Origin: a virus
DNA: 64,000 nt
IMG/VR virus record: IMGVR_UViG_3300042896_000283
Span: 1-64,000 of that record
Strand: one strand, 5' to 3'
Positions 42,357 to 60,674 of the stretch are shown one piece after another. A program made the position numbers and the translations under genes. Each line of letters starts with the position of its first letter. Position 1 is the first letter of the stretch. The notes beneath the pieces are model-generated. The model did not search any database, was not told where the DNA came from, and worked only from the letters and a program-made list of their open reading frames with translations.

Positions 42357-43451
42357 ATGGCAAAAAAAGCAGTAAGCAAAGAAACTAATAACAAGTTTCA
42401 AGAAGCAATGGACAAATTGAACAAGACTTATGGTGTTGGTTCAATATTAGCATTAGATTCTAAAGCAGGAGGAGATTATGATGTAATCAGTACAGGAAGT
42501 ATTGGTTTTGATCACATCACTCTTGGTGTAGGAGGATTTGTAAAGGGGAAACTCTATGAACTTATGGGCTGGGAGGGCACAGGTAAATCTACAATTTGTG
42601 GACATGCTGCAGCTGAATGTCAAAAAGCAGGTGGAACTGTTCTATATATAGATGGTGAGCATGCTGTTGATAAGAGCTATTTCAAGAAATTAGGTGTAGA
42701 TACAACTAAGATGTTGATTTCTCAACCATCATGTGGTGAGGAAGGTTTTAACATTGCAATGGAGATGATCAACACTGGAGAGATTGATCTTGTAATCATA
42801 GATAGTGATAGTTCACTTATACCTAAAAAGATGCTTGATGGTGATGTAGGAGACTCTACAATCGGTAGAAAAGCTTTATTGAATAGTAATGCTTATCCAA
42901 AGCTAAAAGGAGCTCTATCACAACATAATGTATGTGTAATAGTGATTAGTCAGTACAGAGAGAAGATTGGTGTTATGTTTGGTAATCCTACTACTACACA
43001 AGGTGGCCATGCTTTGAAATTCTACAGTGATGTAAGAATAGAAGTATCTAGAAGTTTAGCTAAAGATGGTGATGTAACTTATGGTAATATCACTAAGTTA
43101 AAAGCTATCAAGAATAAAATGTCTCCTCCATATAGAAAATCTGAATTTGAGATTGTTTATGGTAAAGGTATTGATAAACTTGATGAGATGATGGCTCTTC
43201 TTAATGAGTTTGAATTAGGACGTAAGTATGGTAAAACTATGACTGTAGATGGAGTTAAGTATGACTTAGAAGAATTCAAACAGTTGGTAGTTGATAATCC
43301 AGAGTTCTATGATGAACTAAGAGAAAAGATTATTGCCAAAATTAATGAAGCTGATCTTCCTATAGAAGAAGTAGAAGTTGAAGAAGACGTTGTTCTTCCT
43401 ACAGCTCCATGTTCTAATCATGGTTTATTTGATAATGATGAAGAGTTATGA
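42357..43451 (+). CDS. recA: RecA recombinase
   Basis: ISTGS..D, GWEGTGKST, IDGEHA, QYREKIGVMFGNPTTTQGGHALKFYS, KNK. Confidence 0.95.
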   Translation: MAKKAVSKETNNKFQEAMDKLNKTYGVGSILALDSKAGGDYDVISTGSIGFDHITLGVGGFVKGKLYELMGWEGTGKSTICGHAAAECQKAGGTVLYIDGEHAVDKSYFKKLGVDTTKMLISQPSCGEEGFNIAMEMINTGEIDLVIIDSDSSLIPKKMLDGDVGDSTIGRKALLNSNAYPKLKGALSQHNVCVIVISQYREKIGVMFGNPTTTQGGHALKFYSDVRIEVSRSLAKDGDVTYGNITKLKAIKNKMSPPYRKSEFEIVYGKGIDKLDEMMALLNEFELGRKYGKTMTVDGVKYDLEEFKQLVVDNPEFYDELREKIIAKINEADLPIEEVEVEEDVVLPTAPCSNHGLFDNDEEL

Positions 43452-43521
43452 TAAAATAATTTAGTTTTAATTTGCATTTTTAAATTTTTATATTTATCTT
43501 TGAAACTTAAATATAAATATT

Positions 43522-44055
43522 ATGAAAGAAGAATGGAAAGACATAACTGGATATGAAGGATTATATCAAGTGTCTAGTTTAGGTAGAGTAAAAAGATTAA
43601 AAGGTAAATGTTTAGCAAAAGCGGGTAAGTATAGAAATATTTCTGAAAATATACTTACCGCTTTTCCTAATAAAACTAGGTATAATTATCTTTATATTAA
43701 TCTAAATAATAATGGTATAAAACAATTTAGAGTACATAGGTTAGTTGCTTTAGCTTTTATACCTAATTCTAATAATTTACCAGAAGTAAACCACATTGAT
43801 GGTAATAAAGAAAATAATTGTATAACAAATTTAGAATGGTGCACTAATCTAGAAAATATAAAACATTCTTATAAAATAGGAACTCATATAGTAAGAAAAA
43901 ATGATGATGCACCAAATACTAAATTAAATAGTAAACAAGTAATGGAAATAAGAAAAAAATTAAAAGAAGGTTCTTCAGGTAGAAGTTTATCTAAAGAATA
44001 TAACATGAGTGAAGGAATGATTTCATTAATAAAAAATAATAAATACTGGATATGA
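43522..44055 (+). CDS. NUMOD4-HNH homing endonuclease
   Basis: EEWKDITGYEGLYQVSSLGRV; VHRLVA; VNHIDGNKENN; own promoter TTTG...TATCTTTG. Confidence 0.9.
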   Translation: MKEEWKDITGYEGLYQVSSLGRVKRLKGKCLAKAGKYRNISENILTAFPNKTRYNYLYINLNNNGIKQFRVHRLVALAFIPNSNNLPEVNHIDGNKENNCITNLEWCTNLENIKHSYKIGTHIVRKNDDAPNTKLNSKQVMEIRKKLKEGSSGRSLSKEYNMSEGMISLIKNNKYWI

Positions 44056-44711
44056 TAATAGGGGTAGGAGGAAAAATGGGTTCGGGTAAAAATACTGTAT
44101 GTGAGATCATACAAGGATTGTGTGCAACTAACAATGGGCCAGCATTTGAACAAAAAGCTTTTGCAGGGAAGCTAAAAGAAACAGCTTCCCTTCTTACTGG
44201 GATTCCTGTAGAGAAGTTTGAAGATCAAGAATTTAAGAAAACTAGTTTAGGTTCTGAGTGGAATAGACTTCTTTATGCGACATTAGATGATGAAAACCCT
44301 TTACTTTCTGTAATGTCTGTTAGAGAACTTCTACAAAAACTTGGTACAGAAGCAATGCGTGATGGATTACATGTAAATGTATGGATTAATGCTTTGTTTG
44401 CTGATTATAAACCAACAGATTCTAATTGGAATGACAGTTTGTTAAAACATAAACCAGAAAACATGTTGTATCCAAACTGGATTATTACAGACATGAGATT
44501 TCCTAATGAGATGGAAGCTGTTGTAGAAAAAGGTGGGCTTACTATTAAAGTAACAAGACCAGTTGAAAAAAGAAAAACAACTGCTAGATTACACCCTTCA
44601 GAAACAGCTCTGGATGATGCTAAGTTTGATTATGAAATTATCAATGATGGAACTATTGAAGATCTTGTAGAAAAAGTAAGAGAGATTTTAACTAAAGAAG
44701 CAATCATATGA
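44052..44711 (+). CDS. Deoxynucleoside monophosphate kinase
   Basis: GKMGSGKNT, FAGKLK, RELLQKLGTE, ITDMRFPNE, HPSE. Confidence 0.9.
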   Translation: MIIGVGGKMGSGKNTVCEIIQGLCATNNGPAFEQKAFAGKLKETASLLTGIPVEKFEDQEFKKTSLGSEWNRLLYATLDDENPLLSVMSVRELLQKLGTEAMRDGLHVNVWINALFADYKPTDSNWNDSLLKHKPENMLYPNWIITDMRFPNEMEAVVEKGGLTIKVTRPVEKRKTTARLHPSETALDDAKFDYEIINDGTIEDLVEKVREILTKEAII

Positions 44712-45082
44712 ATCCAAGATTTGAACCAAAACATATATTAGCAATTGATTTTGATCTAACTATATGTATGAGTGATTATCCAGCCCTTGGTCCCATTAGA
44801 GATGGGGCTAAGGAGGCTATCACAAAACTATATGAAAAAGGATTTGGTATTGTTATCAATACATGTAGAGAAGGACATGCTTTATCTTATGCTATGCATT
44901 GGTTAAAAGAGAATCAAATTCCTTATCATTATGTTAATTGTAACTTTCCACATCTAATTGAATATTACAAAGCTGATTGTCGTAAGATTTCTGCAGACAT
45001 GTACATTGATGATAAAGGAGTTGAACCTCTTCCATCATGGAATAAAATTTATAAAATAATAAACAACAAATTTAAATTATGA
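44708..45082 (+). CDS. HAD-superfamily phosphatase
   Basis: AIDFDLTI, TCR, RKISADMYIDDK. Confidence 0.85.
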   Translation: MNPRFEPKHILAIDFDLTICMSDYPALGPIRDGAKEAITKLYEKGFGIVINTCREGHALSYAMHWLKENQIPYHYVNCNFPHLIEYYKADCRKISADMYIDDKGVEPLPSWNKIYKIINNKFKL

Positions 45083-45387
45083 AAAGTTACAATGAATTAG
45101 AAGCTCTTGTTATAGCATGGGCAGAACAAAAAGGTATTCTACAAAATGGAACACCAAGAGCACAAGCAATGAAAACCTGGGAAGAAACAGATGAGTTAAT
45201 CACAGCTATCGAAAATGATGATAGAGAAGAAGTAATTGATGCTCTGGGTGATATACTAGTTACAATCATTATACAAGCAGAGATGCAAGGATTAAGCCTT
45301 ACAGAATGTTTGAATAGTGCTTACAATGTAATCTCTAAGCGTACAGGTAAGATGGTAGATGGTCAATTTGTAAAAGATGCAAAATAA
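45079..45387 (+). CDS. MazG-like nucleotide pyrophosphohydrolase
   Basis: KTWEETDEL, DALGD, AYNVISKRTGKMVDGQFVK. Confidence 0.88.
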   Translation: MKSYNELEALVIAWAEQKGILQNGTPRAQAMKTWEETDELITAIENDDREEVIDALGDILVTIIIQAEMQGLSLTECLNSAYNVISKRTGKMVDGQFVKDAK

Positions 45388-46871: not shown

Positions 46872-47549
46872 ATGATATCAGTTCTTACCATAACTTACAA
46901 AAGACATCACCTTCTAGAAGAAGCTATTCAATCATTTTTGAATCAATCTTTTCTTTCAGAAGGTGAAATGGTAATTATTAATGATAACCCTGATGTAGAT
47001 TATATATATGATCACCCCAGGGTTAGAATTATTAATCATAAGGAAAGATTTCCATCTATAGCTGCTAAGCTTGAGTGGGGATATAGACAATGTAAATATG
47101 ATTACATCTATAGACTAGATGATGATGATCTTCTTACACCTTGGGCTCTTAATAATGCAAAGGCAGATATATTAGCTAATCCTGGATTTGAAATTTATAG
47201 AAGTGAAGGAATGTATTTCTTTATGAATAATAAGTTCGAGAAAGAAAGCTCTAATATAAACAATGGAAACATATATACCAAAGCTTATTTAGGTAGAATT
47301 ACATGGCCAGATAAGAGTGGTAATGAAGATGATGACATTACATTCCACCATGGTGGTACAATATATGAATCAAAGTTAAAACATACAATGATTTATAGAT
47401 GGGGAATGGGAACATTCCATATATCAGGATTAGGAATACAATCTAATCAAGTTATATTAGATCATGCAGATAAAGTGTTAGATGATACAAAAGGAGAAAT
47501 TATTCTTCATCCACATTTTAAACATGATTATTATAGTCAAATCAAATAA
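46872..47549 (+). CDS. GT2-family glycosyltransferase
   Basis: ISVLTITYKR, IIND, YRLDDDD. Confidence 0.85.
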   Translation: MISVLTITYKRHHLLEEAIQSFLNQSFLSEGEMVIINDNPDVDYIYDHPRVRIINHKERFPSIAAKLEWGYRQCKYDYIYRLDDDDLLTPWALNNAKADILANPGFEIYRSEGMYFFMNNKFEKESSNINNGNIYTKAYLGRITWPDKSGNEDDDITFHHGGTIYESKLKHTMIYRWGMGTFHISGLGIQSNQVILDHADKVLDDTKGEIILHPHFKHDYYSQIK

Positions 47550-47606: not shown

Positions 47607-47639
47607 AAAAAAGCCCCTCTTAATAGAAGGGCTTTTTTT
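47607..47639. terminator. Bidirectional terminator at strand convergence
   Basis: A6-GCCC...GGGC-T7. Confidence 0.8.
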
Positions 47640-47796
47640 ATTTTGATAATTTCTTAGCTTTCATTGGTTGCTGAGCACTTTTTCTATTTCTAATCAGGTC
47701 AGCTTCTTTCATGTAGTTCCCACTAATAGGTTTAGGAGGAGCCACCTTTGGAGCCTTTCTTGGTGCTCCAGATTTCTTAGCTTTACCAGCTGTCAT
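47638..47796 (-). CDS. Small Lys/Pro-rich protein (52 aa)
   Basis: Manual translation MTAGKAKKSGAPRKAPK... Confidence 0.65.
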   Translation of the reverse strand: MTAGKAKKSGAPRKAPKVAPPKPISGNYMKEADLIRNRKSAQQPMKAKKLSK

Positions 47797-47800
47797 AGAT

Positions 47801-48163
47801 TTACTTGCAGCCATACTTGCATTTCTTTACAGAAGTTCCTGATTTAGCTTTCATTGCACCACCATTTTTCTTATATCCCATTTTATTTCTAACAGGTGTA
47901 GATAATTTTCCAAGACCAACTTTATCAGAAGGAACAGATTTTAAAGAAACACCAGTTTTAGCTTTTTTTACAGGACCACCATTTTTTCTAGTTAGATATT
48001 TAAAATCTTCAGGATGTTTTTTCTCATCTTCTTTTGAGATGACTACACCTACAGCTTTACCTTTGTTAGCTTTTGCATCTTTTATATCTGTAGGAGTTTT
48101 TTTAAAACTAGTTGATGTAGTTTTCTTAGCAGTAATTCCTGCTTGTGCTTTTTTAATTGCCAT
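47801..48163 (-). CDS. Lys-rich protein with KxGG repeats
   Basis: RKNGG, KKNGG. Confidence 0.7.
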   Translation of the reverse strand: MAIKKAQAGITAKKTTSTSFKKTPTDIKDAKANKGKAVGVVISKEDEKKHPEDFKYLTRKNGGPVKKAKTGVSLKSVPSDKVGLGKLSTPVRNKMGYKKNGGAMKAKSGTSVKKCKYGCK

Positions 48164-48230
48164 GATTACATTAATATATTGTTAGTATTAGTTGTTGGTA
48201 AATAACCAAAGAAGTTATTCAGTTTTTTTC

Positions 48231-48509
48231 TTAACAGTTCCATTTTCTCAAAGATTTATTGATTCTTGAATTAGGATCTTTTGCTGTCTTAGCACTTGTA
48301 AGCTTCTTCTTCATACCTGACATTCTACTACAAAATGACTTACGTCTTCCTGCAGCTTTACTTCCAGCTTTAAGTTTAGAAGGCTTAGTAGTTACAGCTG
48401 TCTTAAGTTTGCTTCCAGGATGTTGCTTTCTATATGAAGCCACTCCCTTAGCATTTAGACCACCAGAAGAATTCTTTCCTTCTTTCTTTTGCCATGCTGC
48501 TGTTGCCAT
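48231..48509 (-). CDS. Basic protein (DUF6321-like)
   Basis: GGLNAKG...RRKSFCSRM...SLRKWNC. Confidence 0.75.
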   Translation of the reverse strand: MATAAWQKKEGKNSSGGLNAKGVASYRKQHPGSKLKTAVTTKPSKLKAGSKAAGRRKSFCSRMSGMKKKLTSAKTAKDPNSRINKSLRKWNC

Positions 48510-48790
48510 TATTTCTTAGATTTAGCTTTAATCTTTTTCTCTTGAACTAACATTTGTTTAGTAGGTTTCTTTCCAGATCCTTTATTAGCTCTTATGTTAT
48601 CCCATAATCCACGTTTAGATGTACTACCATCTGCACGTTTAATCATACCACCAGATTTTAATGTGCTTCCTTTAAAGGGGCCTTTCTTCTTGATTAAAGG
48701 ACCATTAGGAACAGGTGTTATCTTACCACCTTTACGTAATACACCAGGGCCTACATAAGCTGTAGCATTCTGAGGATTAAGCTTAGACAT
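48509..48790 (-). CDS. Lys-rich protein with KxGG repeats
   Basis: RKGG, KSGG, RGLWDNIRA. Confidence 0.7.
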   Translation of the reverse strand: MSKLNPQNATAYVGPGVLRKGGKITPVPNGPLIKKKGPFKGSTLKSGGMIKRADGSTSKRGLWDNIRANKGSGKKPTKQMLVQEKKIKAKSKK

Positions 48791-49110
48791 TATTTCTTCT
48801 TAGCTATTTTACGAAGTGTGTGAGCAAGAGCTTTTCTTCGAGGAGTACAAGTTGCTTTAGTTTCAGGTGTACAATATCCTTTATGAGCAGGATTTATTGC
48901 TCCTTGAATCCAGTTTTTTTTTACTTTACCACCAGCTTTCATCTTTGTAGCACCAAGTTGTTTATCTTTTACAAGATGAGCTTTACCTTTTGCACCAGCT
49001 AATGTTTTCTTTTGTACTTTTGTGAATGCTCCATTAGGATCTACAGGACCCACTCGTTTGTTTGATGCTTTAAGTCCAGTTAGACTTCCACCTTTTGTTT
49101 TAGTTGCCAT
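48790..49110 (-). CDS. Lys-rich protein with KxGG repeats
   Basis: TKGG, KAGG, NWIQGA...CTP...CTP. Confidence 0.7.
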   Translation of the reverse strand: MATKTKGGSLTGLKASNKRVGPVDPNGAFTKVQKKTLAGAKGKAHLVKDKQLGATKMKAGGKVKKNWIQGAINPAHKGYCTPETKATCTPRRKALAHTLRKIAKKK

Positions 49111-50365: not shown

Positions 50366-50548
50366 TTAAGGAGCTACTGTAGTAGTAGTGGTAGTTGTAT
50401 AATTACAACATTCTTTAGCATCTATTTCTTTCCAATTTCCAACCTTCGGTTTAAATGCTTGTACAATTAAACTACTTGATACTATACGCCCTGAACCATC
50501 AAAACGTACATAAGCTTTAAGCTTATTATTATTATTACTTCTAGCCAT
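50366..50548 (-). CDS. Small protein with C-terminal Thr7 tail
   Basis: LKAYVRFDGSGRIV...ECCNYTTTTTTTVAP. Confidence 0.85.
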   Translation of the reverse strand: MARSNNNNKLKAYVRFDGSGRIVSSSLIVQAFKPKVGNWKEIDAKECCNYTTTTTTTVAP

Positions 50549-50550
50549 GA

Positions 50551-50736
50551 TTATACAGGTAATGTAGTAGTGGTTGTAGTAGTAGGAACGTAGTTACAGC
50601 ATTCATATGCTAAAATCTCACGCCATTTACCAACTTTTGGCTTATTTTTTCTAAGGATTAAGCTTCCTGCAACTATTCGGCCAGATCCATCGAATCTGAC
50701 AAAAGCCTTTAAAGGTCTTGAATCAATGCTTCCCAT
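50551..50736 (-). CDS. Paralogous small protein with C-terminal Thr7 tail
   Basis: LKAFVRFDGSGRIV...ECCNYVPTTTTTTTLPV. Confidence 0.85.
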   Translation of the reverse strand: MGSIDSRPLKAFVRFDGSGRIVAGSLILRKNKPKVGKWREILAYECCNYVPTTTTTTTLPV

Positions 50737-50753: not shown

Positions 50754-51770
50754 TTAATAGTTTAGGTTATATTTTTGTTTTAGTTCATTAAGTTTAGTTG
50801 CATAGAACCAGGTGCAATATTTTTTTGATCTTTCATCATTAAGAATAACATTTAAGTTAGCATCTTTTGTTGGATCAGTTCCCATATGATATTTACCTTT
50901 GTAAAAGGCTGGGTAACCATTTCCTGTCTCAGAAACTATTCCTGCATTATGAAAGATTGTATGTGTATCTAATTTGATAATAGGATCTGTAGCCCAAGCA
51001 AATGCTAATTCAGGCACCACTCTTGTTTCTTGTTCTCTAAACCATAGGTTCCATAAAACTGCCCACATATCTGCACACCAACTTTGATATCCAGAATTCT
51101 CATCTTTAAAGAACTCTCTATTTATTTTTTGTAAATATGTTCTTATAAGGATACAATCATTCATCACCTTACTCCAGAAGTTTGCATCTACATTCTTTAA
51201 TAAATATTGTGCTCCTCCTGAATGATCATTATTAGCTTCAGCTATTTCTCTACTTATTCCTATAATACTAGCAAGTTCTCCAAGGATATCTCTACTCTTG
51301 TATTCTTCTAGCTTCTCTGGAATCACTTGATGTATCTTACTATCAAAATACTTAGCATTGATATAGCTATTTGTATCTGATAAGTAGTTAATATCATCCT
51401 CTAAGAATTTATCTAGATTGAAATCCTTCATAAATAGAATATCACTATCACAATAGAAGATAGCTTTTTCATTCAGTTCTGGATGTTTTTTAAAATGTTT
51501 CCAAAGAACATATGGTCTTAGTACAGGAATATAGATTCCTAATAACTGATTTAGATTATCTTCATCTGCATAGTAATGAAACTCTGCTTCTGGATATAGA
51601 TCTTCTATCTGTTTCCACTTATCTCTATTCTCTCTTCCTTTAGGAGTGAATATAACAGATATTGCTTTATCAGAATGTCCTATTTCCTTTAAGCTCTCAA
51701 GCCAAAGATTTACTTGCCATGTATAGTAAATATCACTAGGACACGCTTGTAAAAATTTTAAATCTTTCAT
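50754..51770 (-). CDS. GT-A glycosyltransferase resembling plant peptide O-glycosyltransferases (HPAT/GT95, SERGT1/GT96)
   Basis: YYTWQ, YIPVLRPYVL, YCDSDILF (DxD), WCADMWAV, IFHNA. Confidence 0.7.
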   Translation of the reverse strand: MKDLKFLQACPSDIYYTWQVNLWLESLKEIGHSDKAISVIFTPKGRENRDKWKQIEDLYPEAEFHYYADEDNLNQLLGIYIPVLRPYVLWKHFKKHPELNEKAIFYCDSDILFMKDFNLDKFLEDDINYLSDTNSYINAKYFDSKIHQVIPEKLEEYKSRDILGELASIIGISREIAEANNDHSGGAQYLLKNVDANFWSKVMNDCILIRTYLQKINREFFKDENSGYQSWCADMWAVLWNLWFREQETRVVPELAFAWATDPIIKLDTHTIFHNAGIVSETGNGYPAFYKGKYHMGTDPTKDANLNVILNDERSKKYCTWFYATKLNELKQKYNLNY

Positions 51771-51798: not shown

Positions 51799-51936
51799 TT
51801 ATATAGGTGCAACTGTTGTAGTTGTAGTTGTCGTACATTTAGCTGTTACACATATTAATTTTTCTAATTCTTTAGATATTGTCCATAGGAGATTACTTTG
51901 TGTACTCCAACCTATTTGTCTTGATGGTATAGCCAT
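51799..51936 (-). CDS. 45-aa protein: fibre-type anchor plus Thr7 tail
   Basis: Not in ORF track; MAIPSRQIGWSTQSNLLWTISKELEKLICVTAKCTTTTTTTVAPI. Confidence 0.85.
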   Translation of the reverse strand: MAIPSRQIGWSTQSNLLWTISKELEKLICVTAKCTTTTTTTVAPI

Positions 51937-51948
51937 TTTTTATTTTTA

Positions 51949-53424
51949 TTAAACTATTGTTAATATTCCTAAATTTTTCCAAACAGCACCAGTTGGTAAA
52001 CCAGCTGGACTTGTTGGAATATTCATAATTGATAAGTTGTTTACAAATGTAGTGCCACCCATATTAGCAGTTATATTACTACCAACAATAAAAGTATTAG
52101 CATAACTACTTGATATAGTATTATATCCACCACCTAAAATTGCTGAAACATATCCAGAATTATTATTATTTTTACCTCCTCCAACAAATGTATAAAAACC
52201 AGCTGAAACATTATTAAATCCTCCACTTACTGTTCCGTAATTTCCAGAAGCAGTATTGGTACTACCTCCACTAACTGACGAAACCGCTCCAGAAGCAATA
52301 TTATTTTTACCGCCACTTACTACTGAACTATAATTTGAACTGGAATTTGCTTGTCCTCCACCAATAGAAGACCAACCGCCAGATGACACATTTCCAACTC
52401 CACCACTCACTGTGGCAAATCCAGCACTTACAGTATTAGATTTACCACCTCCAACAATAGAATATCCACTATAAGCGTGATTACCAACGCCTCCACCAAC
52501 TGTTGATCCAAAACCCGATGATAAATTACTTCTACCTCCACCAATTGTTCCAAAACTATAAGAAGCAGAGTTGCTACATCCACCTCCAATTGTAGATTTA
52601 TCTCCAGAAGAAGTGTTTCCATATCCACCACCTACTGTTGAAGCATAAGAAGAAGCTAAATTGTGATAACCTCCACCTACTGTTGAAAATGTACAAGAAG
52701 AAGTATTATTTTGACCACCCCCTATCATAGAATAATAACCAGAAGCATTATTAGAACTACCTCCAGAAATTACTGAACGAGTACCAGAAGCAATATTTGA
52801 AGCACCTCCACCAATAAAAGATTGATTACCAGAAGCAGTATTGAAAATACCACCACCAATTGTTGAATAATTATAAGAAGCAGTATTATTTTTACCTCCA
52901 GATATTGTTGAAAGAATACCAGAAGCAATATTGTATAAACCACCTCCTAAAAAAGAACCATACGCACTTGATAAATTTGCTCTCCCTCCTACAATTGTAG
53001 AAAGATAGCCAGTTGATTGATTGTTAGTTCCTCCAGAAATTATAGTTCCATAATTATAAGCAAGATTATTAAAACCACCACCTATTGTTGTACCCTGACT
53101 ACAAGCAATATTACCAGCACCCCCGCCAATTGTAGCATAATAATTAGAAGATATATTATTTTTACCTCCTCCAATTACTGAAAAATTTGAAGTAGCATTA
53201 TTATACGAACCTCCTCCAATAGTAGCATTTAACCCACTCGCATCATTAGTACCCAATACTGGTTGAATACCAGTAGCATTAGCATTATATTCAAATGGAC
53301 CTGATCCACCAGGAGTAGGAACAACAGAAGCTGTTACCTTTGTTAAATATTCTATTTGTTTAGCAATTTGCCATAATAGGTTTGATTCTGTTCCCCAACC
53401 TATTTGTTTACTTGGTATAGCCAT
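51949..53424 (-). CDS. Gly/Ser/Asn-rich beta-solenoid fibre protein
   Basis: Many 14-aa repeats like SGNYSTIGGGxxNTA; N-terminal MAIPSKQIGW module. Confidence 0.8.
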   Translation of the reverse strand: MAIPSKQIGWGTESNLLWQIAKQIEYLTKVTASVVPTPGGSGPFEYNANATGIQPVLGTNDASGLNATIGGGSYNNATSNFSVIGGGKNNISSNYYATIGGGAGNIACSQGTTIGGGFNNLAYNYGTIISGGTNNQSTGYLSTIVGGRANLSSAYGSFLGGGLYNIASGILSTISGGKNNTASYNYSTIGGGIFNTASGNQSFIGGGASNIASGTRSVISGGSSNNASGYYSMIGGGQNNTSSCTFSTVGGGYHNLASSYASTVGGGYGNTSSGDKSTIGGGCSNSASYSFGTIGGGRSNLSSGFGSTVGGGVGNHAYSGYSIVGGGKSNTVSAGFATVSGGVGNVSSGGWSSIGGGQANSSSNYSSVVSGGKNNIASGAVSSVSGGSTNTASGNYGTVSGGFNNVSAGFYTFVGGGKNNNNSGYVSAILGGGYNTISSSYANTFIVGSNITANMGGTTFVNNLSIMNIPTSPAGLPTGAVWKNLGILTIV

Positions 53425-53438
53425 TATATATGTTTTTA

Positions 53439-54479
53439 TTAATAAATTTTTGTTAATGTAAAGTTTCTTGAAAATATTGAATTACCAGCAACATTTGTAT
53501 CCCATTCTGCTGTAATTAAAAGTGTATTACTAACAGTTGTGTCAAATGTTGTAGTATTGATATTAGTTAATACATATCCTTCAAATTGAGTTCCTCCATT
53601 TCTTATATAAGAAAATAATCCTCCTGATGAAATTGATGCCACTGTAGGTCCTCCTGTTGTTCTAATTGTAAAATACAAATTCATTATCCAAGACTTACTA
53701 GTTGCAGCAGCCATATCAATTAATCCTGTATCAGCTAAAAGAATACCAGCCAATGTTCTCACTCTAATACGTAAGTTCGCAGAAGATCCACAAGTAACTA
53801 ATCCATCTAATGCACATATAAAACTATCTCCACTAGTAAAAGAATTTGCAGGAACAGTTAATGAACCTACACCTGTTCCTATTATTGTTGTTTCTACTGC
53901 TGTACCTGTTACAGGTGCTCCATCAGCTGTTTGAGCATATAAACCTGGTAATCCTGCAGGACCTTGAGCACCTGTATCACCTTTAACTCCTTGTATTCCC
54001 TGTGGACCTTGTTCTCCTTGAATACCTTGAGGACCAGCAGGTCCTTGATCTCCTTGAGGTCCTTTTATATCTCCAGCATCAAACCAGTTTGTTCCATTCC
54101 AACTCATTAATGATCCATCAGATAAAAGAATCCATGCATCACCAACATTAGCTCCAGGCATACTTCCTGCACCAGCTAAGAAAGCTGCATAATCTGCGTA
54201 GCTTCCTAATATAGTTACAGAGTTACCAGCAGTTCCTTGAGGACCCTGATCACCCTGTGTTCCTTGTATTCCTTGTATTCCTTGGTCTCCTTGCATACCT
54301 TGCATACCTTGCTCACCCTGAATTCCTTGTGGACCTTCAGGACCTATTGGACCCTGTGGACCAGGAACACCTGGACCAGCAATATCTGATATAAGTTTAT
54401 CAAGATTAAGCCACCCTTTGTATCCTGTACAAGGTTTGCAAAGTTGTTCCCAAAATCCTGCTTTAATAAATGTTGCCAT
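53439..54479 (-). CDS. Collagen-repeat fibre protein
   Basis: Two Gly-X-Y tracts; start re-called at MATFIKAGFWE; TACCTTTG at 54505-54498. Confidence 0.85.
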   Translation of the reverse strand: MATFIKAGFWEQLCKPCTGYKGWLNLDKLISDIAGPGVPGPQGPIGPEGPQGIQGEQGMQGMQGDQGIQGIQGTQGDQGPQGTAGNSVTILGSYADYAAFLAGAGSMPGANVGDAWILLSDGSLMSWNGTNWFDAGDIKGPQGDQGPAGPQGIQGEQGPQGIQGVKGDTGAQGPAGLPGLYAQTADGAPVTGTAVETTIIGTGVGSLTVPANSFTSGDSFICALDGLVTCGSSANLRIRVRTLAGILLADTGLIDMAAATSKSWIMNLYFTIRTTGGPTVASISSGGLFSYIRNGGTQFEGYVLTNINTTTFDTTVSNTLLITAEWDTNVAGNSIFSRNFTLTKIY

Positions 54480-54559
54480 GATTAATGTTGTAAGTATCAA
54501 AGGTATAAGTTTTATACTTACATACAATGACTGTTGTTAAATTAAAATAACTAAAAAAA

Positions 54560-54919: not shown

Positions 54920-55399
54920 TTAAAATAAATTATATTCTAAAACTATACCATATCCACTAGGATTGTTTGGTTGTACGTAATAATTAATACCTGTACTAAA
55001 CTTAGTAAACTCAATCATTAAGTTTGTATATATAACAGGTTCTTTTAATGTAAATTTTATAGATTGTATACCAGCATATCCATGTATCTCAAATGATTTC
55101 TTGCTTTTGATAATCTCTTTATTGATATCAATTACACTTTTTTGATAGAATATGATTGAATCTTTTATACCTAATTGATTCTTAAACTCAATTTCTTTAT
55201 TCTGATAATTTTTGATTCTTACTTCTTGTTCCTTGATGATGTTCTTAGCAAAATCATAACGTACAAGATCAGTAGCAACCTTCCTAGCAACATTTTCACT
55301 AAGGGTGACAATAGAATCATTTTTCTGGGTATTTTGTCCAAATATACTATTTGTTAGTAACAATATAGTAATTACTATTATTAAATTTTTAAGATACAT
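54920..55399 (-). CDS. Secreted coiled-coil protein, spanin-like
   Basis: Signal peptide, coiled coil, C-terminal beta strands ending YNLF; in lysis cluster. Confidence 0.5.
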   Translation of the reverse strand: MYLKNLIIVITILLLTNSIFGQNTQKNDSIVTLSENVARKVATDLVRYDFAKNIIKEQEVRIKNYQNKEIEFKNQLGIKDSIIFYQKSVIDINKEIIKSKKSFEIHGYAGIQSIKFTLKEPVIYTNLMIEFTKFSTGINYYVQPNNPSGYGIVLEYNLF

Positions 55400-55905
55400 C
55401 TTGCTTCTGTTATATTACGATTACCACTTATTTCTTTTAACTTAGAAGAAACACCTCCATTAGAAAGTTTATATTTTCTTTTTAAATAAATAATACTCTT
55501 ATTACTTAATACATCTAATCTAAATTCATTTAAATCAATAACCTTGTATGTAGGATTTAAATTTCCTTTTTTAGAATTTGCTATTTTTAATAATGCATAT
55601 TCAGTATGTTTATATCCAGTTGTATCAGGACCTCTGTTACCACCAATAGATACATTATAGTTATCTTTTTTAGATATCCATTTTTTATCAACTATAAATG
55701 ATTCTTCTTCATAAGCTTCTTTTAAAGAATCAAAAAAACAAAGTATTTCAATTTTAAAATTTAACTTTCCATATTTTAAAATAGCTTTTTTTAATTTATC
55801 TCCAGATCCTAAATATCCATCATTCAAGTTTTTAGTAGAATGTACTCCTATATAAGTTTTATCATTTACTAAATTTTTAGTTTGATATGTAAAATGATGA
55901 ATCAT
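55381..55905 (-). CDS. GIY-YIG (Seg-like) homing endonuclease
   Basis: YQTKNLVNDKTYIGVHST...GYLGSG...KYG..NF...YNVSIGG. Confidence 0.9.
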   Translation of the reverse strand: MIHHFTYQTKNLVNDKTYIGVHSTKNLNDGYLGSGDKLKKAILKYGKLNFKIEILCFFDSLKEAYEEESFIVDKKWISKKDNYNVSIGGNRGPDTTGYKHTEYALLKIANSKKGNLNPTYKVIDLNEFRLDVLSNKSIIYLKRKYKLSNGGVSSKLKEISGNRNITEARCILKI

Positions 55906-57489: not shown

Positions 57490-57722
57490 TAGTCTAAGAT
57501 TACAACATCACCTTTCCAACTAATCTTATTTGGGTTACATGTTAAGTGATGTTTATTTACAAGTTCTTGTCTTGAGCTATCCCATACATCATCTCTTGTT
57601 GTATGAGTTGGAACATTAATAACTATATTAGCACATATATGTTCTACACCATCAATTAATATTCTCCAGAATGTATGATTATCATCACACAATGTATTAT
57701 ATCTAATTTGTACTAAACTCAT
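57489..57722 (-). CDS. Hypothetical protein
   Basis: Translationally coupled within sulfation operon. Confidence 0.7.
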   Translation of the reverse strand: MSLVQIRYNTLCDDNHTFWRILIDGVEHICANIVINVPTHTTRDDVWDSSRQELVNKHHLTCNPNKISWKGDVVILD

Positions 57723-58120
57723 AGCTTTCCATCTTTACGCATTTGTTCTCTGATCTTTGTAGCAGATATATCTCCTATCTCTGTAGGTGGAATATGTTCT
57801 ATAATATCATAACCAACACCTCTTCCAAACTCTACAGAACATATATCTGGAACTATCATGATTTTGATTCTTCCTTCTTCTATAAGAGAATGATAATGTG
57901 CATTTATGTTATCATATACTTCTTCTGCTGTAAAAGGATTCTTTTCATTCACTTGTCCATCACGAATGCATATAAGCACATTCTTTCCTTCATCTAGAGC
58001 TCCTTTAAACAAAGCTTGGTGCCCAAGGTGCAATGGTTGCCATCTTCCAATAAACATTGCAAACTGTCCTTCTTTAGAAGGAATTGATGATTCTACGTGT
58101 ATCTTTTTAGTCCAACTCAT
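57719..58120 (-). CDS. HxGH nucleotidyltransferase, candidate minimal ATP sulfurylase
   Basis: GRWQPLHLGH, NPF, GRGVGY, ISATKIR. Confidence 0.75.
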   Translation of the reverse strand: MSWTKKIHVESSIPSKEGQFAMFIGRWQPLHLGHQALFKGALDEGKNVLICIRDGQVNEKNPFTAEEVYDNINAHYHSLIEEGRIKIMIVPDICSVEFGRGVGYDIIEHIPPTEIGDISATKIREQMRKDGKL

Positions 58121-58560
58121 TTTATTAGTTTTAAAATTTTAGCAATTGATTCTTCTGGTGTATCATCTGTAGTATCTACATCAATAAAGTTCTCTAATGG
58201 AGCTTCATAATTTGCTACTCTGAAATGATCTCTTTCTCTAGGTGAGTCTGTATGAACATATAGTTCTATAAGATCTGCACCAAGCATAGATTTAAGTTCT
58301 TCTCTTTGCCATCTGTAAGGAGCAATAAGAGAAACCACCACTGTGTAATCTTGGTTATATAAATAGTGTGCTATCTTCTGTGCACCTTTAACATTATCTA
58401 TTCTTCCTTGTTCAGAGAAATCTACATTTAATGTAAGGGCTCTTAGATCATCACCATCTATATGAAATACTTTTCCATATTTTTCTAGTTCTTCTTTTAG
58501 TAATTTAGCCAACACTGTTTTACCATGTGAAGGCTGTCCTGTAAACCAATATACTGCCAT
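58117..58560 (-). CDS. cysC: Adenylylsulfate (APS) kinase
   Basis: WFTGQPSHGKT, IDGDDLR, FSEQGRIDN, SLIAPY, YEAP. Confidence 0.88.
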   Translation of the reverse strand: MAVYWFTGQPSHGKTVLAKLLKEELEKYGKVFHIDGDDLRALTLNVDFSEQGRIDNVKGAQKIAHYLYNQDYTVVVSLIAPYRWQREELKSMLGADLIELYVHTDSPRERDHFRVANYEAPLENFIDVDTTDDTPEESIAKILKLIK

Positions 58561-59429
58561 TATTTCAATGCTTTAATTATATCCTCACTATTAAATATAT
58601 TTCCTAGCTCTGTGTATGGACATCTAGAGATATCTTCGAATAATGGAAGTTTCTGTAAATATGCATTATCAAAGTTTAATTCTTTATCTGGAGTGTTAGC
58701 ATCTAAATTAGCATGCATATCATAACCAAACACTTTAGAACTTGTTCCTATCCAACATACAAGACTTGGTAATCCTAGAGCTGCAGCAATATGCATAGCA
58801 GATGAATCAATAAGAAGTCTTCTTTGTGCTAATGATAATAAAACAGCTATACTTCTGAATGAATCAAGAGCTCCTACTGTATCTGCATACATTGGTTGAT
58901 CCTCACGTTTGATATGTACAATTGTATAATCTTTTTTGTAATGTTGTATTACATCATTAATTACTGGAGCTGGAATATCTCTAACCCAACTATAGTTCAA
59001 TGGTTGATCTATTGGCCCACCATTAGGCTGTATAGCCATAATAGGTTTTTCTAATTGGTAGAATGGAGCAAAGTATTCCACTTCTGCTTTAGAGATAAAC
59101 AATTCAGGTAGTTCATTATTATATGGTACCTCACATAACTTACACCAGATTTCAATTAAATGTTTTGATTCTGTTAAGTAGTCTGATGTTGTATAAGGAT
59201 CTGTAATAAATACCTTTGCATCCTTACCTCCTATGTAATCTTTATATAATCCTAATGTAGTTCCATGAACTATCACCTTATTTACATTTGGATTACCAAT
59301 AAATACATCTGGGTAAGATGTAAGAACAATTACATTTGCTTTAGGGTGTTCAGTTCTAATAGCTTTTAATACAGCTGTAGATAAGATATTCTTACCTAAG
59401 CCTCCTGATATATCAAATATTATATTCAT
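58560..59429 (-). CDS. GT9-like (GT-B) glycosyltransferase
   Basis: Start re-called at MNIIFDISGGLGKNI; DSSAMHIAAALG. Confidence 0.8.
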   Translation of the reverse strand: MNIIFDISGGLGKNILSTAVLKAIRTEHPKANVIVLTSYPDVFIGNPNVNKVIVHGTTLGLYKDYIGGKDAKVFITDPYTTSDYLTESKHLIEIWCKLCEVPYNNELPELFISKAEVEYFAPFYQLEKPIMAIQPNGGPIDQPLNYSWVRDIPAPVINDVIQHYKKDYTIVHIKREDQPMYADTVGALDSFRSIAVLLSLAQRRLLIDSSAMHIAAALGLPSLVCWIGTSSKVFGYDMHANLDANTPDKELNFDNAYLQKLPLFEDISRCPYTELGNIFNSEDIIKALK

Positions 59430-59439
59430 AGTTGTTGGT

Positions 59440-60261
59440 TTATACGTATCCAAATTTCTTAAAGAACCAAGGATATGTGTTTTTAATTGATTGACAGTTT
59501 TCATATCCTAAGATTTCTTCAAAATCATCAGGCTTTCTTTCAAACTTAGATCTTAGTTTATGATCTCCATAGATACCATGTATAGCATCATTCTCATGTG
59601 TATGCTGTGTAACAGTTTCAAAATTGTGACCTTCATAATATGGAAGTTCCATATACTCATAAAAACGTCTCATTTCTTGTTCAGGGAAATCCATTAAGTC
59701 TTCATAACGAATAAATAATACATTCTTATCTATTCCTTGATCAAACATATCTTTTAGTCTATCCATAGATATACCAACTGGTGGTCCATCTGCCCATAGA
59801 TTAATTCTTTTTTGAAGAGTGGTACCTACTAATTGATTAGCATTTTGAATATGATTTTCTTGTGTAGGATTTTTACGAAAGTTTTTCTCCATAGAAGCAT
59901 AGACAGCACGTACATCTCTAATCATACATACCACTTTAGGAGCTATCATAAACTCACTAGCAAGATTAAAATGTATTCCCCATCCTCTATTCTTATCTAA
60001 TACATAAGGTTTATCTGTAAGGGCATTAAAATATCCATGCATTGCATTATGACAAAATCCTATAAATGCATTTTTCATTAGTTCAGCATCTTGTGCTTTA
60101 ACTTCTGATGAATGGTTATAGTTTGCTTTTGCTCCTAGAAGTAAATCTAAGAAACCTGATGTAGGTGTACAATGGAAATCTGGATTATCTGCTACAATAT
60201 TTTGCAGAAGAGTAGATCCTGCTCTAGGAAGAGAGGAGTTAAAAAAGATTCTTTTCTTCAT
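59440..60261 (-). CDS. PAPS-dependent sulfotransferase
   Basis: 5'-PSB SLPRAGSTLL; 3'-PB IRDVRAVYAS; IRYEDL. Confidence 0.9.
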   Translation of the reverse strand: MKKRIFFNSSLPRAGSTLLQNIVADNPDFHCTPTSGFLDLLLGAKANYNHSSEVKAQDAELMKNAFIGFCHNAMHGYFNALTDKPYVLDKNRGWGIHFNLASEFMIAPKVVCMIRDVRAVYASMEKNFRKNPTQENHIQNANQLVGTTLQKRINLWADGPPVGISMDRLKDMFDQGIDKNVLFIRYEDLMDFPEQEMRRFYEYMELPYYEGHNFETVTQHTHENDAIHGIYGDHKLRSKFERKPDDFEEILGYENCQSIKNTYPWFFKKFGYV

Positions 60262-60350: not shown

Positions 60351-60674
60351 TTATGCTACAGTAGTTGTAGTAGTTGTAGTATCTTTTGCAATTTGCAATT
60401 CAGCAATCAAAGCATCAATAAGAGGTTTTAAAGCTTCATCATCTTTTACAGTGAATGAATCTTTATTTACCCATCTTACATCCTTATAACCAAAAAGGTT
60501 AATAGCATGAAAAGGAGAAATTAATGCAGGATTTTCTGCAGGTTTTTTAGCAAAGATTGCCTCTACTAAAGGAGTAACAGTAGTTAATGTATCTGTAGAT
60601 ACTTTTACTGATAACTCTTTTGAATTGATTTGGGTTTCGCCATATCCAAAGATATGAATTGTGAAATTTTCCAT
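60351..60674 (-). CDS. Protein with C-terminal Thr7 tail
   Basis: Ends KDTTTTTTTVA. Confidence 0.8.
   Translation of the reverse strand: MENFTIHIFGYGETQINSKELSVKVSTDTLTTVTPLVEAIFAKKPAENPALISPFHAINLFGYKDVRWVNKDSFTVKDDEALKPLIDALIAELQIAKDTTTTTTTVA

Follow-up and report, generated by a model that had tools for sequence, protein, structure and literature searches.

A candidate poly-Thr O-glycosyltransferase of the GT-A fold encoded in the fibre module of a complete phage genome

The question raised by this locus is which acceptor would be served by a soluble glycosyltransferase (GT) of 338 aa, encoded on the minus strand at 50754..51770 of the analysed DNA. The window, i.e., the whole stretch of 64,000 nucleotides under study, is a part of the virus record IMGVR_UViG_3300042896_000283 from IMG/VR, which comprises 113,094 bp and is complete, with terminal repeats. 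The closest contigs in the genome collection are binned with Cytophagales, Saprospiraceae, and Sediminibacterium and, for this reason, the phage host belongs probably to the aquatic Bacteroidota. The reading preferred here, to which a probability of about 0.7 is given, is that the GT would be a cytoplasmic metal-dependent GT-A enzyme putting the first sugar on the poly-Thr tags of the phage's own small and fibre-like proteins, whereby the Thr acceptor and the initiating (not extending) role are suggested by association, and the retaining mechanism by the fold.

The open reading frame (50754-51770, minus strand) runs from ATG through the stop codon and encodes, in this order, the motifs YYTWQ (residues 15-19), YIPVLRP (80-86), DSDILF (108-113), and WCADMWA (231-237). 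The four motifs had been pointed out, in the same order, by the original prediction, which was made from the letters of the DNA, and they do lie on conserved columns of the family. Thus, the residues Y80, D108, D110, H274, and K291 are invariant in the alignment of 69 homologs with 31-87% identity, where R85 and D234 are conserved at a level of at least 90%; Y15, W18, W231, M235, and W236 are also invariant in an alignment of 10 sequences, and the DxD pair (D108, D110) is invariant in three further alignments of the family. The motifs coincide with the most conserved family columns and are not chance strings. The protein is assigned to phrog_4417 (PHROG 4417 in the PHROGs collection, function unknown) with E = 2e-55, while it has no Pfam match up to E = 10 and no NCBIfam model, and the PDB sequence searches, both by protein and by profile, returned nothing significant. 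The clustered protein collection yielded over 2,600 homologs (E <= 0.001) and 771 representative clusters at 50% identity, and the homologs among the matches listed are unnamed or designated as 'hypothetical'. The searches of the protein database from such distant members as a protein of a Myxococcales MAG and gp51 of phiFL1A gave matches that are all unnamed and without a Pfam entry. The GT is a member of a large unnamed family of phages and bacteria.

The AlphaFold model of the protein, built on the 69 homologs, reached a pLDDT of 96.8 and a pTM of 0.93, and in this model the fold is that of a GT-A glycosyltransferase, with a single Rossmann-like domain superposable on solved members. Together with the conserved DxD, the model bears out the assignment to glycosyltransferases that had been made beforehand. 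The matches among the solved structures were glycogenin (GT8, match value 14.3), LgtC (GT8, 14.0), the Skp1 galactosyltransferase AgtA (GT77, 13.9), the catalytic domain of UGGT (GT24, 13.8), WbbM (no GT family assigned here, 13.3), GlyE (GT8, 12.4), and LARGE1 (GT8-type domain, 12.4); they span nearly the whole model, and the Foldseek results were concordant. The top structural matches are retaining enzymes, and, because the fold is GT8-like and the nearest folds all belong to such enzymes, we infer a retaining mechanism for the modelled GT. The order D108-x-D110, H274, K291 is the order of the metal and diphosphate ligands in GT8, and, by this analogy, the same residues are the putative metal and diphosphate ligands of the phage enzyme. 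As there is no hydrophobic segment (Kyte-Doolittle means over 19 residues reach 0.77 at most) and the opening strand of the modelled fold starts as early as residue 4, the GT is a soluble cytoplasmic enzyme. It differs from the GT8 group (glycogenin, LgtC, GlyE; also GT77 AgtA and GT24 UGGT) by an identity of 8-13% only and by the lack of a Pfam GT8 match, while its model is by about 80-100 residues longer than the glycogenin chains; the acceptors of that group are Tyr or glycan, whereas the acceptor implied by the context of the phage gene is a poly-Thr tag.

The same structural matches give ground to the main rival explanation, according to which the GT is a glycan extender supplying the second sugar or a later one, after a host or phage enzyme has primed the Thr tags or another acceptor. 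The best matches include such extenders as LgtC, Skp1 AgtA, and GlyE, which belongs to the pathway of the serine-rich-repeat adhesins, and the phage also encodes a GT2-family glycosyltransferase (46872..47549, plus strand) as well as a 314-aa protein without a family match in the sulfation cassette described below. However, the top match, glycogenin, glycosylates a protein hydroxyl directly, and two further comparisons, with isolated phages and with multi-domain relatives, also weigh against extension, which we consider unlikely.

The acceptor is suggested by the surroundings of the gene. The six-frame translation of the whole phage genome contains 17 Thr runs of at least five residues, mostly exactly T7, versus 0.02 in the shuffled sequence, and all 17 are located in minus-strand ORFs, at 50-60 kb and at 84-103 kb. 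The Thr7 acceptors that the original prediction had in view are present as four ORFs of the window, all on the minus strand and ending with T7 followed by 2-4 residues. The first of them, of 45 aa (51799..51936), is situated 28 nt upstream of the GT and is kept in this place in the relatives; it has an N-terminus like that of a 491-aa fibre protein, directly followed by KC-T7-VAPI. The second, a 61-aa protein (50551..50736) located 17 nt downstream of the GT, consists of a small conserved domain ending with CC and of the tail P-T7-LPV, and its relatives possess the tag in 1-4 copies or use it for linking to larger C-terminal domains, while the third is a 60-aa paralogue of the second (50366..50548) that ends with T7-VAP. 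No more than 30 nt separate these three tagged ORFs from the GT or from one another. The fourth, of 107 aa (60351..60674), is encoded directly upstream of a sulfotransferase gene and ends with D-T7-VA. The 491-aa protein itself, Gly/Ser-rich, with repeats, and fibre-like, is encoded at 51949..53424 on the minus strand, and, since it shares a similar N-terminus with the 45-aa T7 peptide, the GT is placed inside the fibre module. Outside the window, very large minus-strand ORFs at 84-103 kb of the genome carry several T7 runs as inter-domain linkers, often beside Cys pairs. When the GT and the 61-aa T7 protein were modelled as a complex, the score was 0.01, which weighs neither way. The poly-Thr could be a plain flexible linker.

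Several other genes of this region deserve mention on their own. A collagen-repeat tail-fibre protein, with matches to PF01391 and many tail-fibre PHROGs, is encoded just upstream of the GT (53439-54527, minus strand), and several shorter ORFs ending in T7 occur at 84-103 kb of the genome. Five consecutive small ORFs of 58-120 aa at 47638-49110 (minus strand) show an extreme content of Lys, Gly, Ala, and Thr and belong to no assigned family; their products might be basic internal or DNA-binding proteins. The GIY-YIG (SegE-like) endonuclease at 55381-55905 (minus strand) and the HNH/NUMOD4 endonuclease at 43522-44055 (plus strand) are probably homing endonucleases inserted among the phage genes.

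The conservation of the tag was followed in 80 loci of IMG/VR, whose GTs are 62-95% identical to that of the window. Thr runs were found near the GT in 78 of the 80 loci, all the 315 runs being on the strand of the GT and 205 of them being exactly seven residues long, and the typical tag is composed of Pro, then T7, and then V/A/I-A-P. The small ORFs flanking the GT are conserved in these relatives, with 1-4 repeats of T7-xAP or, past the tag, with a C-terminal domain that may reach about 450 aa. As the length, the context and the flanking ORFs are kept across the relatives, the T7 tag, judged by comparison of sequences, is a conserved and length-constrained module rather than a slippage artefact. 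As a separate observation, the domain 'KAFVRFDGSGR...CC' of both the 60-aa proteins recurs at the N-terminus of larger proteins (140-510 aa), where it serves as a module joined via the T7 linker (for example L121:11260-12789, L101:11251-12015, and L109:11040-11914), and a Chitinophaga locus (L006:5037-5321) contains two copies of this domain with no Thr run.

The association of the GT with poly-Thr extends to unrelated isolated phages. Homologs with 28-35% identity were detected by tblastn (E <= 1e-5) in 77 isolated phage records, the hosts of which include Lactobacillus, Enterococcus, Staphylococcus, Lactococcus, Clostridium, Chryseobacterium, and others. In Enterococcus phage phiFL1A, the homolog follows directly the major tail protein and precedes the tail chaperones; the major tail protein has a C-terminal Thr/Ser tail of 27 residues, and gp45, a protein of 331 aa encoded after the scaffold gene and unnamed in the record, which is probably the major capsid protein, has T7 at its end. 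A matched pair is formed by the tail protein of phiFL1A and gp17.1 (40% identity) of SPP1, a phage having neither the Thr tail nor the GT. Poly-Thr tails or tracts, chiefly encoded immediately upstream of the GT, were found also in Staphylococcus phage DH5, Enterococcus phage nattely, Clostridium phage phiCTP1, Lactobacillus phage Semele, and Chryseobacterium phage MA9V-3, while in Levilactobacillus phage ENFP1 the sole Thr run is located at about 80 kb from the GT. The scans of whole records revealed (ACN)6 in all these seven GT-bearing isolates and in none of eight phages devoid of the GT (TP901-1, phiEf11, SPP1, 80alpha, 11b, A118, T4, and A2). With the window genome counted in, poly-Thr is distributed as 8/8 with the GT versus 0/8 without it (Fisher p = 1.6e-4), the controls being few and hand-picked.

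Five of the isolated phages with both the GT and the tags contain no gene of GT2 or GT1/GT4, while the same searches gave matches in 14 out of 14 control genomes. The GT is, as far as the sequences tell, the sole one of these common kinds encoded in the five carriers, and, since these tagged carriers encode no GT2 or GT1/GT4, the initiating role is favoured over the extension of a glycan that another enzyme has begun.

The location in structural operons bears also on a different explanation, namely that the GT modifies a polymer of the host envelope (LPS, teichoic acid, or capsule), and the poly-Thr are unglycosylated linkers sharing the structural module. Many phage glycosyltransferases alter the host surface, and lipo-oligosaccharide is the substrate of such GT8 enzymes as LgtC. 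However, the GT is found inside late structural operons, as in phiFL1A, where the major tail protein and the tail chaperones flank it, it occurs in large virulent-type phages, it tracks the presence of poly-Thr across phyla, its bacterial homologs are placed in exported-peptide clusters next to the precursor genes, and it has no membrane segment. The host-surface converting enzyme was rejected on account of the structural operons, the tracking of poly-Thr and the lack of a membrane segment, and there is only a small chance that the GT is of this kind.

The bacterial homologs provide a setting of another type for the proposed glycosylation of poly-Thr. In the genome collection, 73 loci with a GT homolog were found, mostly in Chitinophagaceae and Sphingobacteriaceae, and 70 of the 73 (L006-L075) were analysed. 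The domain is usually N-terminal in a protein of 500-600 aa, where it is followed by another GT domain, either GT2 or GT7C, and the fusions of the family include GT2, GT6, GT7C, GT29, O-FucT, and methyltransferase domains. These fused relatives would fit a pattern of 'first enzyme plus extenders', and the fact that the GT-family domain is constant in the multi-domain relatives, while the second GT domains vary, speaks against the extending role for the family itself. A LanC-like neighbour (Pfam PF05147, down to E = 1e-40) is present in 47 of the 70 loci, a C39-peptidase ABC exporter in 33, and short precursors with Gly-Gly leaders in 30; about 23 of the 70 have no LanC-like neighbour, and many bacterial loci are without a strict Thr run within 4 kb. 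The leaders of the precursors show the pattern LxLxKx5L...GG, which has been described for the class I lanthipeptides of Bacteroidetes (Walker et al. 2020, 10.1101/2020.03.13.990614), and two precursors are above the cut-off of the pinensin lanthipeptide leader model NF038180. The cores are rich in Ser and Thr right past the GG, in some cases with T6-T7, and then rich in Cys; the examples of such clusters are L043:3602-7678, L031:3609-5575, and L057:2245-6796. All the 36 Thr runs in the bacterial loci are on the strand of the GT, nearly all of them upstream of it and mostly in the adjacent gene.

A quick maximum-likelihood tree placed the 47 GTs that have a LanC-like neighbour all in one supported clade of 54 rows (aLRT 99). 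The window GT groups with L003-L006, and the sequences of isolated phages make up a clade of their own (aLRT 89); as the tree has no root, no direction of transfer is claimed. The lanthipeptide-type clusters, as read from their predicted genes, are an independent setting that pairs the family with Thr-rich ribosomal peptides. The peptide hydroxy-amino acid acceptor supposed at the outset is well supported by the comparative context, which ties the family strongly to poly-Thr in products of ribosomal synthesis, while the Thr as the very residue modified is presumed.

The glycosylation of modified DNA bases, as by the glycosyltransferases of T4-type and other phages, would be a further role for a phage enzyme of this fold, since DNA-base glycosyltransferases of the GT-A and Fringe-like kinds are known from phages (PMC7968844). 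The plus-strand (early) block ends with a group of genes at 42357-45387 that encode RecA, a dNMP kinase and a MazG-like pyrophosphohydrolase. The dNMP kinase invites the question whether nucleotides are modified, and this kinase and the MazG-like enzyme could be counted in favour of such a role. However, the GT is on the late structural strand, away from the nucleotide-metabolism genes, its homologs in the 38-kb temperate Enterococcus phages and in the lanthipeptide clusters are ill-suited to DNA modification, and T4 has no homolog. A DNA glycosyltransferase was rejected by the late structural location, the homologs in lanthipeptide clusters and their absence from T4, and its probability is very low.

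According to the preferred reading, i.e., the transfer of the first sugar to poly-Thr, the GT would use a nucleotide sugar as a donor in the metal-dependent reaction in the cytoplasm, and the sugar would be passed to the Thr hydroxyls of the (P)T7-(V/A/I)AP tags before or during the assembly. The tags would serve as C-terminal tails or inter-domain linkers on small and fibre-like phage proteins and, when glycosylated, would surround the particle with a sugar coat resembling mucin. Candidates for a possible extension or decoration of the glycan are the above GT2 protein, which is on the strand opposite to the GT, and a cassette at 57.7-60.3 kb. This sulfation cassette (57719..60261, minus strand) lies in the late region directly after the T7-tailed 107-aa protein and includes a sulfotransferase (PF13469/PF00685, 59440-60261), the 314-aa protein already mentioned (within 57719-60261), an APS kinase (58117-58560), and a cytidylyltransferase-like nucleotidyltransferase (57719-58120), all encoded on the minus strand. 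By its position, the cassette could be linked to the glycan, and the virion glycans could be sulfated.

The kinship with the plant extensin-modifying enzymes, HPAT (hydroxyproline O-arabinosyltransferases of plants and algae, GT95, PF23452) and SERGT1 (peptidyl-serine alpha-galactosyltransferase, GT96), as a viral member of whose family the GT had been proposed, was not borne out by the profile searches. The window protein and the sets of 69, 53, 76, and 30 homologs were compared with Pfam by hmmscan, and PF23452 gave no match among about 220 family members from phages, Bacteroidota, Firmicutes, and Proteobacteria, lenient E-values included. No match to PF23452 was found in the phage genome, nor in five homolog-holding genomes and 401 Bacteroidota, 401 Pseudomonadota, and 301 Myxococcota genomes, where the control genomes were likewise matchless, so that this result says little; PF23741 (DUF7164) was absent from 401 Pseudomonadota genomes. 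A full-text search of the literature yielded no paper naming PF23452, DUF7164, or phrog_4417. The sole pointer to HPAT is given by the ESM Atlas, in which PF23452 occurs among the members of 22 of the 30 nearest Pfam-named clusters, reaching 58% of the members in a bacterial cluster, and six of the nearest Pfam-named clusters carry DUF7164; these neighbours are leads and not alignments.

The structural comparison that had been proposed as a check of the plant affinity was carried out with Foldseek and the solved structures, and its best matches are from GT8, GT77, and GT24, which is the outcome that was to speak against this affinity; however, it is not fairly applicable here because there was no HPAT or SERGT1 structure among the PDB matches. 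The plant HPATs were reportedly described by Ogawa-Ohnishi and co-authors in 2013 as structurally similar to GT8, and, if this is so, the GT8 enzymes as the top matches are not an argument against the HPAT idea. GT95 and GT96 are described as mutually related (PMC8012813). The plant enzymes, like the GT of the window as proposed, put the first sugar on hydroxy-amino acids of repetitive peptide stretches; however, they have a type II membrane anchor and are lumenal, with Hyp or Ser as acceptors, whereas the phage enzyme is soluble and anchorless, with Thr as the implied acceptor. By analogy, the GT plausibly works like the HPAT and SERGT1 enzymes.

Among the bacterial systems, the glycocin and class I lanthipeptide clusters are the closest in setting, as the bacterial homologs are likewise found beside the GG-leader precursors, C39-ABC exporters, and LanC-like proteins, that is, in the setting of peptide tailoring. 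The glycosyltransferases of glycocins (SunS/GccA type) belong to GT2, whereas the domain of the present family is not GT2, though GT2 or GT7C is often fused behind it in bacteria. Such RiPP clusters are bacterial, while the window gene is phage-borne and lies outside any RiPP cluster. For the class I clusters, no glycosyltransferases were reported by Walker et al. (2020, 10.1101/2020.03.13.990614).

The glycosylation of virions is, in itself, a known phenomenon. It is known that in mycobacteriophages this modification shields the virions from antibodies, and measured glycosylation is not known from phages other than the mycobacteriophages. Such phages as Che8 and Rita encode GTs by which glycans are placed on the major capsid proteins, forming a glycan shield, as related in a later article (Freeman et al. 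2023, cited through PMC11256854). The present phage is similar in combining a phage-encoded GT with Ser/Thr-rich stretches on capsid-region, tail, and fibre proteins, which are here the candidate acceptor tags. However, the enzymes of mycobacteriophages belong to a different family, and no Mycobacterium phage was present among the 77 homolog-bearing records (tblastn, E <= 1e-5); a fixed T7-xAP tag is not stated for the mycobacteriophages in PMC11256854, and the review PMC9863714 contains nothing on virion glycosylation. The glycosylation was measured in the mycobacteriophages, while in the window phage it is presumed from the genes. Although virion glycosylation is known, the window GT represents a different and unnamed family, with a distinctive tag.

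In a wider sense, the family might be the initiator of a widespread and unrecognised O-glycosylation that reads short poly-Thr tags (P-T7-xAP) and is common to the virions of many unrelated phages, which it would give a mucin-like coat, here perhaps sulfated, and to a large clade of lanthipeptide-type peptides of Bacteroidota, being at the same time a prokaryotic and viral sister of the plant GT95/GT96; as a whole, this is a tentative proposal that we regard as rather doubtful. The presence of the GT in the lanthipeptide clusters of Bacteroidota predicts a class of glycosylated peptides missed by genome mining, because the GT domain has no Pfam model. The short portable tag P-T7-xAP, together with a single soluble enzyme, would be a simple tool for protein glycosylation in bacteria, and the Enterococcus phages phiFL1A and VPE25 are cultivable carriers. 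If the proposed modification of poly-Thr is true, sugar-coated virions would occur in the phages of Enterococcus, Staphylococcus, Lactobacillus, Clostridium, and many aquatic Bacteroidota, with a bearing on phage therapy, mucus adhesion, and host recognition.
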